A program made the position numbers and the translations under genes. From a virus, in IMG/VR virus record IMGVR_UViG_3300044633_000521: a DNA stretch of 64,000 nt; one strand, written 5' to 3'. This document shows, piece by piece, positions 46,646-49,387 of this stretch (the stretch's first letter is position 1; each line of letters begins with the position of its first letter). Under the pieces are notes generated by a model. That model had not been told where the DNA came from and did not search any database. It was given only the letters and a program-made list of their open reading frames with translations.

Positions 46646-46674
46646 TTGACACTGATCAATAAAGGTGTTATAAT
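46646..46674 (+). promoter_or_regulatory. Sigma70-type promoter
   Basis: Perfect TTGACA-17 bp-TATAAT. Confidence 0.85.
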
Positions 46675-46705: not shown

Positions 46706-46948
46706 ATGGCCGCAACAAAAAGTTCAGTAGAGGTTTATAATATCGACGATGCGCTAGCAGTATTTGATAATAATCAATTTAAGTTAATACTTGCGGCTGC
46801 TATACGTGCTCGTGAAATTGCTACTGCTCGTACTATAGCCGAACGTGCTGGCTCTAAAGTTAAATATGCTAATCGTGCCAATGTATCTGCAATTATTGAA
46901 TTTGCTGAAGGTAAGATTGGTAAAGAGTATCTAGACAAGGTACGATAA
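46706..46948 (+). CDS. rpoZ: RNA polymerase omega subunit homologue
   Basis: IDDALAVFDNNQFKLILAAAIRAREI...VSAIIEFAEGKI matches omega motifs (N.F.L.L.AA.RAR; A..E...G.I). Confidence 0.75.
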   Translation: MAATKSSVEVYNIDDALAVFDNNQFKLILAAAIRAREIATARTIAERAGSKVKYANRANVSAIIEFAEGKIGKEYLDKVR

Positions 46949-46954
46949 GAATTT

Positions 46955-47033
46955 GGGCCCGAAGCTTAAACCTGGTATAAGCACTCGGCTCATAACCGAA
47001 AGACAGTGAGTTCAAATCTCACCAGGCCCACCA
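46955..47033 (+). tRNA. tRNA with CAT anticodon (Ile2 or elongator Met)
   Basis: Cloverleaf; loop CTCATAA; T-arm GTGAG-TTCAAAT-CTCAC; CCA encoded. Confidence 0.85.
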
Positions 47034-47047
47034 AATAAAGGACAAGT

Positions 47048-47221
47048 ATGACAAACGAAGAATATGAACAAGCAATGAAAGAGTTTTTAGCCACCGGCGG
47101 AGAAATCAAACAAATCGCTCGCGGTGTACAAAGTGAAACAGCAACAACTAACTTCTGGGGCGCACCTAAAAAGAAACCAAAAGAAGTTGAAGTAATACCA
47201 GGGACAGATTTAGAAGTATAA
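47048..47221 (+). CDS. 57-aa SutA-like RNAP-binding peptide (not in the ORF track)
   Basis: AAAGGA Shine-Dalgarno; MTNEEYEQAMKEFLATGGEIKQIARGVQSE...; the AMxEFLxxGGxIxxI core resembles the Pseudomonas SutA domain as I recall it. Confidence 0.6.
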   Translation: MTNEEYEQAMKEFLATGGEIKQIARGVQSETATTNFWGAPKKKPKEVEVIPGTDLEV

Positions 47222-47251: not shown

Positions 47252-47280
47252 TTGACAGGCTAATAAATAGACTGTATAAT
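47252..47280 (+). promoter_or_regulatory. Sigma70-type promoter of the tRNA operon
   Basis: Perfect TTGACA-17 bp-TATAAT with an AT-rich UP region. Confidence 0.9.
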
Positions 47281-47323
47281 AGTTGTTATAGTAAGAAATT
47301 AATTAAAGGAATGCGAAAGCAAA

Positions 47324-47455
47324 ATGTTTAACCAGCTACATCAATTTAATATATCAAAACAAGTGTGCGCACTTGCCACGATGTCTTATTGGTCAGCGAT
47401 TGAGACATTAGGCAATGATCGCACACCGAATAGTATCTATGGGGATCTTAATTAG
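47324..47455 (+). CDS. 43-aa leader peptide of a putative attenuator (not in the ORF track)
   Basis: MFNQLHQFNISKQVCALATMSYWSAIETLGNDRTPNSIYGDLN*; AAAGGA Shine-Dalgarno brought close to the ATG by a TGC-GAAA-GCA mini-hairpin. Confidence 0.6.
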   Translation: MFNQLHQFNISKQVCALATMSYWSAIETLGNDRTPNSIYGDLN

Positions 47456-47494
47456 AGTTTATATATAATATAAGTTAATTTTAATTAAGAACCC
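47442..47494 (+). promoter_or_regulatory. Putative antiterminator stem
   Basis: GGGATCTTAATTAGAGT (47442-58) pairs with ATTTTAATTAAGAACCC (47478-94), overlapping the terminator 5' arm. Confidence 0.65.
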
Positions 47495-47525
47495 TAAGAT
47501 CGAAAGACTTAGGGTTTTTTGTTTT
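47490..47525 (+). terminator. Intrinsic terminator upstream of the tRNA operon
   Basis: AACCCTAAG-a-TC-GAAA-GA-CTTAGGGTT followed by TTTTGTTTT. Confidence 0.85.
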
Positions 47526-47716
47526 ATGTGTCTCGGAAACGAGGTCCAACAAGGCACATTAAAGATAGTTTGTAAACGGGCGGACAAGTGGATGGCATGT
47601 TCTTATGTGAACAGAAAATACTTGTTATAATAAAGTACACTGCGTCAAGAGCAAAGCGTCTTCTGATTTCAAGGGTCAACCAGTGTATTTTATTATACGC
47701 TTTCATATGAGAGCGT
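47526..47716 (+). ncRNA. Unassigned multi-stem RNA leader before tRNA-Tyr
   Basis: Stems ATGTGT/GCACAT enclosing CTCG-GAAA-CGAG; ACAAGTG/TACTTGT; 17-bp TATAATAAAGTACACTG/CAGTGTATTTTATTATA; ACGCTTTCA/TGAGAGCGT. Confidence 0.5.
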
Positions 47717-47719
47717 CGA

Positions 47720-47803
47720 GGAGTGGAAGCATCAACGGTGATGCAGTGGACTGTAAATCCGCCGCCTATGGCACGCCTGGTTCGATCCCAGGACACTCCA
47801 CCA
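47720..47803 (+). tRNA. tRNA-Tyr(GTA)
   Basis: Loop CTGTAAA, long variable arm, CCA. Confidence 0.92.
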
Positions 47804-47808
47804 GTAAT

Positions 47809-47885
47809 GCGGTGTTAGCTCAGTTGGTTAGAGCGCCAGCCTGTCACGTTGGAGGCCGTGGGTTCGAGCCCCATACACCGCGCCA
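47809..47885 (+). tRNA. tRNA-Asp(GTC)
   Basis: Canonical cloverleaf, loop CTGTCAC, G73, CCA. Confidence 0.95.
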
Positions 47886-47893
47886 AAGTTTCT

Positions 47894-47970
47894 CTGCCCA
47901 TAGCTCAGCTGGATAGAGCACAAAGCTTCTACCTTTGGTGTCGGGAGTTCGAATCTCTCTGGGCAGGCCA
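47894..47970 (+). tRNA. tRNA-Arg(TCT)
   Basis: CAAAG-CTTCTAC-CTTTG anticodon arm, CCA. Confidence 0.95.
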
Positions 47971-47995
47971 GTTTTAAATCCTTTAGTAGTTTTTT

Positions 47996-48071
47996 TGGCA
48001 TATAGCTCAGTTGGTAGAGCAGCGGACTGTTAATCCGCGTGTCCCTGGTTCGAGCCCAGGTTTGCCAGCCA
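47996..48071 (+). tRNA. tRNA-Asn(GTT)
   Basis: GCGGA-CTGTTAA-TCCGC, CCA. Confidence 0.95.
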
Positions 48072-48076
48072 AATAT

Positions 48077-48150
48077 TCCGGTGTAGTATAATGGCAGTGC
48101 GATGGTCTCCAAAACCATTAGTGGGAGTTCGATTCTCTCCACCGGAGCCA
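48077..48150 (+). tRNA. tRNA-Trp(CCA)
   Basis: ATGGT-CTCCAAA-ACCAT, G73, CCA. Confidence 0.95.
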
Positions 48151-48219
48151 AACATAAAGTATATAAAGATGTATATTAAACATATAAAAACCTTTAATAT
48201 ACATAATTATGTACATTAC

Positions 48220-48296
48220 GCAACGGTACCAGAGTGGCCCAATGGCAGGGACTGCAAATCCTTTGTACGTCGGTTCAAATCCGACCCGTTGCTCCA
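48220..48296 (+). tRNA. tRNA-Cys(GCA)
   Basis: Loop CTGCAAA, U73, CCA. Confidence 0.92.
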
Positions 48297-48299
48297 AAT

Positions 48300-48374
48300 G
48301 CCCTGTTAGTTCAACGGATAGAATTAGAGTCTTCGAAACTCAGGATGGGGGTTCGATTCCCTCACAGGGCTCCA
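48300..48374 (+). tRNA. tRNA-Arg(TCG)
   Basis: GAGT-CTTCGAA-ACTC, CCA. Confidence 0.9.
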
Positions 48375-48442
48375 AATATTACTGCTCAGTAACATTTCTA
48401 GTCAAAACTGACTAAATCAATGAAAATATTACTGCTCAGTAA
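48374..48442. repeat. 19-bp palindromic direct repeat, two copies, 50-bp period
   Basis: AAATATTACTGCTCAGTAA at 48374-92 and 48424-42. Confidence 0.85.
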
Positions 48443-48451
48443 GATTATAAT

Positions 48452-48525
48452 GCGGGTATGATGTAATGGTAACCTACGACTTTGCCAAAGTTGAATTGCG
48501 AGTTCAATTCTCGCTACCCGCTCCA
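48452..48525 (+). tRNA. tRNA-Gly(GCC)
   Basis: GCGGGTA/TACCCGC acceptor, loop TTGCCAA, U73, CCA. Confidence 0.93.
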
Positions 48526-48531
48526 GTTTAC

Positions 48532-48609
48532 GTTGCTTTGCTGGTTCGAGTCCAGCTTGTAGGTCAAGCGAAATAGCAGCCTACGGTAGTTTAATGGTAA
48601 AACAGCAAC
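48532..48609 (+). ncRNA. Circularly permuted tRNA-like RNA (YrlA/Y-RNA-like topology)
   Basis: Order: GTTGC, T-arm (GCTGG-TTCGAGT-CCAGC), acceptor hairpin TTGTAGG...CCTACGG, D-arm (GTTT-AATGGTA-AAAC), GCAAC. Confidence 0.75.
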
Positions 48610-48615
48610 CTCTAT

Positions 48616-48690
48616 GGTGTCTATAGTGTAGTGGTAACACTCAGGATTGTGATTCCTGCATCACGGGTTCGAACCCCGTTAGACACCCCA
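48616..48690 (+). tRNA. tRNA-His(GTG)
   Basis: G-1 and C73, CAGGA-TTGTGAT-TCCTG, CCA. Confidence 0.95.
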
Positions 48691-48691
48691 T

Positions 48692-48720
48692 TTGACAAGT
48701 CAACTAAATGACTGTATAAT
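48692..48720 (+). promoter_or_regulatory. Sigma70-type promoter (leaderless transcript)
   Basis: TTGACA-17 bp-TATAAT; ATG 6 nt downstream. Confidence 0.85.
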
Positions 48721-48726
48721 ACGCTT

Positions 48727-48987
48727 ATGACCGAAGAACAACAATTAGCCTGGGATATACTAAGCACGCCAAATAATGCGGACTTTAAGAATTATCGCAG
48801 ACAGCATCGTATGACATGGTTAACTAAAGATCGCAAGATATTGTTAATTAGAGACATGGAAACGGCACATATCATAAGTTGCGTCAATATGTTAGAAGCA
48901 TTGGGGCAAGAAGAAACCTTGGCCTATAATGGCCTAATAGATGAACTAAGAAAGCGAGGAGAGCACGATGATGAAACCGTGGATTGA
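48727..48987 (+). CDS. Hypothetical protein
   Basis: 86-aa ORF with W.TKD....I.DMET.HI motif. Confidence 0.65.
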   Translation: MTEEQQLAWDILSTPNNADFKNYRRQHRMTWLTKDRKILLIRDMETAHIISCVNMLEALGQEETLAYNGLIDELRKRGEHDDETVD

Positions 48988-49387
48988 AAATATCAGTCTT
49001 GATGATGTACGCAAGGGCTATCATTACGACCCAGGTTTCAACAGTATGCTAATACAGATCGTAGATCCTGGTGTAGAGTTTCCAAAGCCTAAATATGACT
49101 TTCGCCGAGTACATCAGTTCTACTTCTTAGATGTAGAAGAAAGCGACAGCGAAAAGTTTTACTATGCGGCAGCCATTACCAACGCTGATGCTAAGGGTAT
49201 TGCCGAAGCATTAAAAGAAGCATGGAACGAAAGTATGAATGTAGTGGTACACTGCCATATGGGGGTAGCACGTAGTGGTGCCGTGGCAGAAGTTGGGCAT
49301 ATGATTGGGTTTAGAGATACAGAAAAATATCGTATACCAAACCTTATGGTAAAACATAAGTTAATGTACTACTTGGATTTAGTGTAA
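48968..49387 (+). CDS. Protein-tyrosine / dual-specificity phosphatase-like protein
   Basis: VHCHMGVARSGA (HCx5R) and PN motif. Confidence 0.8.
   Translation: MMKPWIENISLDDVRKGYHYDPGFNSMLIQIVDPGVEFPKPKYDFRRVHQFYFLDVEESDSEKFYYAAAITNADAKGIAEALKEAWNESMNVVVHCHMGVARSGAVAEVGHMIGFRDTEKYRIPNLMVKHKLMYYLDLV

Follow-up and report, generated by a model that had tools for sequence, protein, structure and literature searches.

In a 64,000-nucleotide stretch (the window) of the IMG/VR virus record IMGVR_UViG_3300044633_000521, a short leader open reading frame (ORF) of 43 codons lies between a very strong host-type promoter and an operon of stable RNAs, namely a structured RNA followed by nine transfer RNA (tRNA) genes. 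The predicted end of the ORF transcript can pair with the 5′ arm of an intrinsic terminator, and comparison of relatives shows that this putative antiterminator and the terminator are both conserved with compensatory changes and, as folded, cannot coexist. The pattern of change in the ORF indicates that it is under coding constraint, and it is very likely translated. On balance, these comparisons lead us to favour, with moderate confidence, a ribosome-dependent transcription attenuator of the leader-peptide type. Production of these tRNAs would then probably be confined largely to times of slowed translation.

The window belongs to a 99.6-kb record judged 29% complete, and a virion protein relates the uncultured source phage distantly (~32% identity) to jumbo phages of the PA5oct/RaK2 type. 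We compared 33 versions of the element, all from lake-metagenome jumbo phages. Twenty-eight distinct versions were collected as DNA by searching viral contigs with neighbouring genes, by a peptide search, and by a degenerate 35-nucleotide (nt) pattern permitting synonymous variation. An exhaustive profile search added more distant peptides, five of them with DNA available; a 492-residue match from the exhaustive peptide search was dropped as a low-complexity repeat protein. The relatives are on contigs of 331-364 kb. Nucleotide searches of a phage collection with the element gave only one unrelated 38-nt match and tblastn with the leader peptide gave none; the element is known only from metagenomic contigs.

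Conservation of the leader, the antiterminator and the terminator

The order of parts is constant in all versions: TTGACA-17-TATA(A/C)T, the ORF, a hairpin and the terminator. The −35 element is invariant, and the −10 element is TATAAT or TATACT nearly throughout (TACACT once). Downstream, a tRNA block is present at every locus long enough to show one, while the upstream context differs among relatives and may hold a pair of omega-like and SutA-like genes, a methyltransferase, a ClpP gene or other small ORFs.

A sequence-only reading of the window had already described a perfect sigma70 promoter, the 43-codon ORF, an intrinsic terminator and nine tRNAs, and each of these is present (Table 1). 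The promoter matches the consensus at 12 of 12 positions. The terminator is better drawn as a 12/11-nt stem with a GAAA loop and a U6GU4 tail (−13.5 kcal/mol); a simple terminator scan overlooked it because its gapless version has a 9-nt loop. Across all homologs its energy is −12.5 to −15.9 kcal/mol. The same reading had proposed a 17-bp stem (47442-58 / 47478-94) that overlaps the terminator 5′ arm and excludes the terminator. This stem is real, with 17 positions that include one A/A mismatch and three G-U pairs, and it reaches outward to 47435-38 / 47497-47500, so that it covers 11 nt of the terminator arm. With these nucleotides shared and both helices covarying in relatives, the mutual exclusion is upheld. 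The comparison with related phages that the reading had proposed likewise found the short ORF, a stop codon inside the hairpin and covariation of the stem to be conserved.

In folds of each homolog's nascent RNA that end at the terminator loop, the last part of the ORF pairs with 6-11 nt of the terminator 5′ arm. The energy of this sequestration in the window is −9.3 kcal/mol, compared with −2.8 +/- 2.4 for shuffled sequences. In the homologs it ranges from −7.7 to −16.4 kcal/mol against shuffled values of −2.5 to −5.0 (standard deviation ~2.3), and no more than 5% of shuffles match the observed energy in each of 23 distinct versions.

The antiterminator helix has 84.7-87.3% of its cells paired, a proportion that falls to at most 62% when the partner strand is slid, and 5-8 of its pairs are changed on both sides. 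In an alignment of 25 sequences, with 84.7% of cells paired and eight double-changed pairs, its covariation score is 0.231 compared with 0.170 for shuffled alignments, and none of 500 shuffles reaches it. For the terminator, 93.5-98.7% of cells are paired and 4-7 pairs carry compensatory changes; in the 25-sequence alignment, with 93.5% paired and seven such pairs, the score is 0.340 versus 0.163 shuffled. Alignment columns 84-94 are common to the two helices. Column 88, for example, pairs with both column 8 and column 110, and all three are changed together in relative L150, where the ORF strand, the shared strand and the terminator 3′ strand read GGAG / CUCC / GGAG instead of the GGGG / CCCU / AGGG found in all others.

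The ORF always crosses the antiterminator 5′ strand (X), whose part competing with the terminator is 47435-44, and it always ends within the hairpin, although at least eight types of tail occur. The GGG of X is kept in four codon contexts, which by tail type include Gly, Arg-Val or a split across Glu-Gly, and this retention reflects an RNA constraint rather than a peptide constraint. In most types the stop codon lies 8 nt past the competing GGG; in type B and in L146 the distance is 23-29 nt.

Two other candidate structures were considered. The large hairpin at 47364-47426 in the minimum-energy fold of the window is not conserved, as its 5′ strand varies without compensation. A helix between the 5′ untranslated region (UTR) or start codon and the peptide core is 96% paired in close relatives and includes one pair with four double changes, but its covariation does not exceed that of shuffles and it is not recovered once distant homologs are added. 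An Rfam search of 47252-47720 and of the homologous stretches in L004 and L112 gave no T-box or other match down to E = 10.

The coding constraint is evident at several levels. The ORF stays open in 28 of 28 DNA-collected and five of five distant versions. In the DNA-collected set, the six insertions or deletions within it are all multiples of three (+3, +3, −3, +3, +3, −6), whereas those in the UTR and past the stop codon are of 1, 2 or 4 nt. Several codons vary only synonymously (TCA/TCG, GTG/GTC, CTA/TTA/TTG, CGC/CGT), and the two alternative frames across the ORF are crowded with stops. Codon adaptation of the leader is low (0.60 versus 0.716 +/- 0.071, the 4.5th percentile). Searches of Pfam, of longer proteins and of the ESM atlas with the leader peptide yielded no family, fold lead or longer homolog.

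From the leader promoter to the end of the tRNA block there is no promoter matching at 11-12 of 12 positions in the window, L149 or L084; these scans used the sigma70 consensus, by which phage-specific promoters are not recognisable. The next 12/12 promoter in the window begins at 48692, as the sequence-only reading had said, two bases after the block ends. In L149 and L084, the next consensus promoter after that of the leader comes only past 19 tRNAs, directly behind tRNA-His. The structured RNA behind the terminator shows many compensatory changes in the relatives' alignment and has no Rfam match. Because it covaries and lies directly past the terminator, it must, barring a promoter within it, be transcribed from upstream.

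The tRNA blocks of relatives are near-complete sets of up to 19 tRNAs, and the first downstream tRNA in nearly all relatives examined is tRNA-Pro(UGG), with Tyr in its place in L146 and L149. The window operon had been linked to nuclease defence through its four GUN tRNAs and two Arg tRNAs, the target classes of colicins E5 and D. That set is peculiar to the window, as relatives start with tRNA-Pro and hold up to 19 tRNAs, and the link is incidental. Eight of the nine window tRNAs are called by ARAGORN, and the ninth (Tyr, 47720-47800) is detected by Rfam alone (33 bits, threshold 29).

Proposed mechanism, amino-acid diversity and the invariant core

The mechanism we propose builds on established ribosome footprints and on the trp model. 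The antiterminator hairpin would form first on the nascent RNA, before the terminator 3′ arm is made. If no ribosome is present, or if one is delayed with its A site at about codons 2-33, the full hairpin would stay intact and permit read-through into the tRNA genes. A ribosome that does not lag, and whose A site has reached the final codons or the stop codon, would cover about 47435-47470 and melt the antiterminator. This would free 47490-47500, the terminator would form, and transcription would end at about 47520-25. The geometry fits a choice between the two structures by ribosome position. The signal would be general decoding capacity, as reflected in scarce or cleaved tRNA, amino-acid starvation or ribosome shortage, rather than any single amino acid, because the leader has no codon runs, encodes 19-20 amino acids and has low codon adaptation. 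The outcome would be a supply-and-demand feedback on the phage's own tRNAs.

Several observations weigh against this reading. The number of terminator-arm bases paired upstream does not exceed that in shuffles, and the energy gain given above replaced this count as the statistic after the count had failed. The terminator state is favoured at equilibrium by ~1-6 kcal/mol, although such a preference is usual in attenuators under kinetic control. In the window type, the competing zone is just 9 pairs long and is interrupted by a bulge and an A/A mismatch, which makes the efficiency of antitermination uncertain, and in type-B tails the stop lies 23 nt beyond the GGG, which makes masking by a terminating ribosome less clear-cut. 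The efficiency of translation is uncertain, as AGGA is 13 nt from the leader AUG compared with mostly 6-9 nt in window genes that have a Shine-Dalgarno (SD) sequence. A possible promoter, formed by a conserved TATAAT (47626-31) and a weak −35 and spanning 47603-31 in all, stands past the terminator and ahead of the tRNAs. Finally, the attenuator model does not account for the invariant peptide and nucleotide core described below. An extended −10 promoter at 47623-31 was also considered and is weakened by a TG that is not conserved and by the position of the hexamer in a covarying 17-bp RNA helix.

The leader was first noticed for encoding all 20 amino acids in its first 35 residues, for which the sequence-only reading had estimated a chance below 1%. 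The estimate is right, as 0.09% of random draws and nine of the 16,708 35-residue windows in the phage's long ORFs do so. The diversity is largely maintained in relatives. All 20 kinds are encoded in 24 of 28 DNA versions, and the remaining four lack only Cys. All 17 peptide lineages, which are not independent of one another, hold 19-20 kinds in 39-50 residues, with most kinds present once or twice. No cluster of regulatory codons for one amino acid occurs in the leader.

Other results temper the notion of an all-amino-acid sensor. Cys is missing from six of the 17 lineages, which weakens it. The 17 conserved residues alone give 14 kinds, and when the non-conserved residues are filled at random, 14-42% of the trials for a lineage reach at least 19 kinds and 2-5% reach all 20. 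Where Cys occurs at position 38/39, it lies within the antiterminator strand, encoded by a U-N-U codon over the hairpin bulge, and a stall there would favour termination rather than read-through. Cys is found at seven or more alignment positions among the 17 lineages, and a relocating Cys was considered as a sign of selection for the full alphabet. This is weakened, since Cys may be a by-product of the RNA: position 39 is the U-N-U codon at the bulge, and Cys15 creates RNA pairing. A bias of the leader towards the eight amino acids that the nine window tRNAs carry is likewise weakened (15 of 43 residues versus ~13.5 expected). The diversity is real and, as the lineages show, maintained, but selection for diversity is not shown. 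Of the original proposal of an attenuator controlling the tRNA operon, the architecture is borne out by comparison, but the idea of a leader designed as an all-amino-acid sensor has partial support only.

A broader version can be put forward only tentatively, and we regard it as possible but doubtful. The leader would serve as a generalist test translation, its near-complete amino-acid alphabet being kept so that a shortage of nearly any host tRNA, or its cleavage by a nuclease, delays the pioneer ribosome and switches on the operon of up to 19 tRNAs. The terminated RNA or the peptide may also act in trans by way of the invariant core of 18 nt and seven residues.

The core of the leader stands apart from the rest of the ORF. 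Residues S21-P35 are nearly invariant in the close set, and the seven residues SYWSAIE are essentially invariant in all lineages. In 17 lineages with flanks diverged to ~50% amino-acid identity, the 18 bases at 47387-47404 barely change, and this holds for synonymous positions too. Such a core, synonymous sites included, is not explained by pure codon sensing. It might possibly be a pause signal or the trans-acting seed of the terminated 238-nt RNA; the complement of the invariant 18-mer occurs nowhere else in the window.

Alternative explanations and known systems

One alternative, which we consider rather unlikely as an account of the locus, is an ordinary small phage gene. The ORF would encode a 43-amino-acid micro-protein with a trans-acting role, for instance at RNA polymerase, as its omega-like and SutA-like neighbours would have. 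The gene would have its own promoter and terminator and a 3′-end hairpin for mRNA stability or processing, and the tRNAs would be made by constitutive leak-through or from unrecognised promoters. The peptide core is invariant and the changes in it are mostly synonymous, synteny with two small genes of the RNA-polymerase-binding type is frequent, a TATAAT is conserved downstream of the terminator, and the terminator is strong, all of which would suit such a gene. However, a micro-protein leaves unexplained why the end of the ORF stays complementary to the terminator 5′ arm through coordinated changes on three strands, and why GGG is retained over different codon contexts. Nor would it predict a tRNA block that is constant downstream while the upstream context varies, or an 18-nt core conserved at synonymous sites beyond what a protein requires, and the searches for a family, fold lead or longer homolog were all without a match.

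In a second alternative, which we judge improbable, the nascent chain (W23 ... P35) would stall the ribosome at codon 35 or close to it on a specific signal, either a small molecule, as with TnaC of the tna operon, or prolyl-tRNA supply. A stall just upstream of 47442 would leave the 17-bp antiterminator intact and permit read-through. In keeping with this, the conserved 15-residue block has Pro as its last residue, with variable tails beyond it, the Pro codon is CCG in 27 of 28 versions, and tRNA-Pro(UGG) is the usual first tRNA downstream in the relatives. The conserved Trp stands 12 residues before the conserved Pro, the same spacing as in TnaC (W12, P24; PMC10941005), where the position of the ribosome also decides downstream transcription. 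The critical residues of TnaC are W12, D16, I19 and P24, with D16E a loss-of-function change (PMC10941005), but the leader matches only W and P, with E at the place of D16 and G at that of I19. Moreover, the spacing is 13 in four lineages and the Pro is lost in one, and membership of the TnaC type was rejected on these grounds. The Pro is not followed by a stop, no Pfam profile matches, and the phage terminator is intrinsic, not Rho-dependent. A ribosome with P35 in its P site would occlude 47435-41 and hence exactly the pairs in competition with the terminator, the window operon itself has no tRNA-Pro, and invariance at the nucleotide level suggests an RNA rather than a peptide constraint.

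That the ~238-nt terminated transcript acts chiefly as a small RNA in trans, perhaps with a dual function as in Sinorhizobium rnTrpL/peTrpL and with the invariant 18 nt as its seed, seems very improbable: it is strongly structured (z = −4.09), its strong promoter and terminator give it the boundaries of a small RNA, its 18 bases are invariant at synonymous sites and attenuator-derived small RNAs have precedent (PMC6614838), but the window has no complementary target, the ORF constraint is clear, and such a role is compatible with an attenuator, to which it would be an added function.

The attenuator that we favour has much in common with those of amino-acid operons such as trpL, hisL and pheL or the multivalent thrL and ilvL. 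Common to both are a promoter-proximal short ORF that is translated (in the phage, by prediction), an intrinsic terminator ahead of the regulated genes, an antiterminator that shares a strand with the terminator, and a stop codon placed such that a terminating ribosome masks the antiterminator 5′ strand (in the phage, as predicted from the geometry of most tail types). The phage unit would work like an attenuator of the trp/his type, with four of its structural features in place and without the defining run of regulatory codons. The phage leader differs in having 19-20 kinds of amino acid instead of such runs, and in a peptide core and nucleotides that are invariant, which is not the case in typical leaders. 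Amino-acid operon attenuators regulate biosynthetic enzymes, whereas the phage unit would regulate tRNAs and a structured RNA. Unlike the trp/his type, the phage leader has no demonstrated 1:2 (anti-antiterminator) helix, so that the default without translation would be read-through.

By analogy, the proposed sensing logic is closest to that of the ribosome-mediated attenuators that respond to translation inhibitors (vmlR, msrD/mef and the erm/cat type; PMC9226507, PMC4335068). What both would detect is a ribosome that has slowed or stalled within a short leader ORF, not the supply of one amino acid, and in both an upstream stall would let the antiterminator persist. In the inhibitor-responsive systems, drug-bound ribosomes stall at defined peptide motifs to control resistance genes, whereas no drug is implied for the phage unit, whose output would be tRNA supply. 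T-box riboswitches resemble the proposed attenuator in coupling tRNA status to read-through of an intrinsic terminator. However, a T-box contains no ORF and recognises uncharged tRNA by direct binding, while the phage element has a leader ORF with predicted translation and no match to the Rfam T-box.

To our knowledge, little has been established about the regulation of phage tRNAs, and in our literature searches no paper described phage tRNA genes controlled through a leader peptide. The purpose of these tRNAs is debated, with codon compensation and escape from tRNA-cleaving defences as the opposing views (PMC10264068, PMC11464382). If the proposed mechanism is correct, the phage measures decoding capacity and adjusts its tRNA supply on demand, and leader-peptide attenuation, a textbook mechanism for amino-acid operons, extends to stable-RNA genes. 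A generalist sensor, if true, would give the phage an inducible means of countering starvation and tRNA-targeting defence systems. The element is compact (~270 nt) and uses host sigma70 signals.

Features and surroundings of the locus

The features of the locus are collected in Table 1. Transcription from the leader promoter is predicted to start at ~47287, and an AU-rich hairpin sits after the ORF and before the terminator. Besides the leader promoter, the only 12/12 sigma70 sites around the locus are at 46646, 48692 and 49889, which makes four in the stretch. An extended −10-like motif, TG-n-TATAGT at 47284-47292, overlaps the region of the leader transcription start and is kept in most homologs.

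Table 1. Coordinates of the leader element and the downstream operon in the window
Feature	Position	Strand	Remarks
Consensus sigma70 promoter	47252-47280	+	TTGACA-17-TATAAT, 12/12; −35 at 47252-57, −10 at 47275-80
5′ UTR, strongly conserved, 37 nt	47287-47323	+	Alignment of homologs; AGGA at 47307-10
Leader ORF, 43 codons + TAG	47324-47455	+	Open in 33 versions
Conserved peptide core S21-P35	47384-47428	+	18 bases 47387-47404 nearly invariant, synonymous sites included
Predicted antiterminator 5′ strand (X)	47435-47459	+	Last codons, stop codon 47453-55 and 4 nt further; nascent-transcript folds, covariation
Predicted antiterminator 3′ strand (Y)	47477-47500	+	47490-47500 common to Y and terminator
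Intrinsic terminator	47490-47525	+	5′ arm 47490-47501, GAAA loop 47502-05, 3′ arm 47506-16, U-tract to 47525
Structured RNA, 194 nt, no known family	47526-47719	+	z = −4.18; reached only by read-through unless own promoter exists
Nine tRNA genes: Tyr, Asp, Arg(TCT), Asn, Trp, Cys, Arg(TCG), Gly(GCC), His	47720-48690	+	ARAGORN and Rfam

In six relatives, an extra small ORF with a good SD sequence comes directly after the terminator (42-43 codons in L086, L108, L114 and L147; 80-87 codons in L115 and L150). It precedes the structured RNA and would be expressed on read-through only. Between the structured RNA and tRNA-Pro, L004 (7520-7610) and the homologous stretch of L086, L112 and L113 hold a tRNA-like segment with a good T-arm and acceptor-like ends that receives no ARAGORN or Rfam call and is absent from the window. 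Within the window block, the 90-nt spacer between tRNA-Gly and tRNA-His (48526-48616) carries a T-arm-like segment and other tRNA-like pieces, with no tRNA called.

Upstream of the leader, the 12/12 promoter at 46646 drives an 80-amino-acid omega/Rpb6-like ORF (46706-46948; PF01192, E = 3e-4), a tRNA detected by Rfam alone (46955-47030) and a 57-amino-acid ORF (47048-47221) that matches the RNA-polymerase-binding domain of SutA (PF20661, E = 7.5e-7). In several relatives the leader is likewise preceded by the omega-like and SutA-like genes. Downstream of the block, the ATG of an 86-amino-acid ORF, at 48727, is 7 nt past the −10 hexamer of the 12/12 promoter at 48692-48720, which suggests a leaderless mRNA. 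Further on, a 139-amino-acid ORF (48968-49387), conserved across 30 viral contigs, shows a weak signature of dual-specificity phosphatases (PF00782, E = 5.7e-5).

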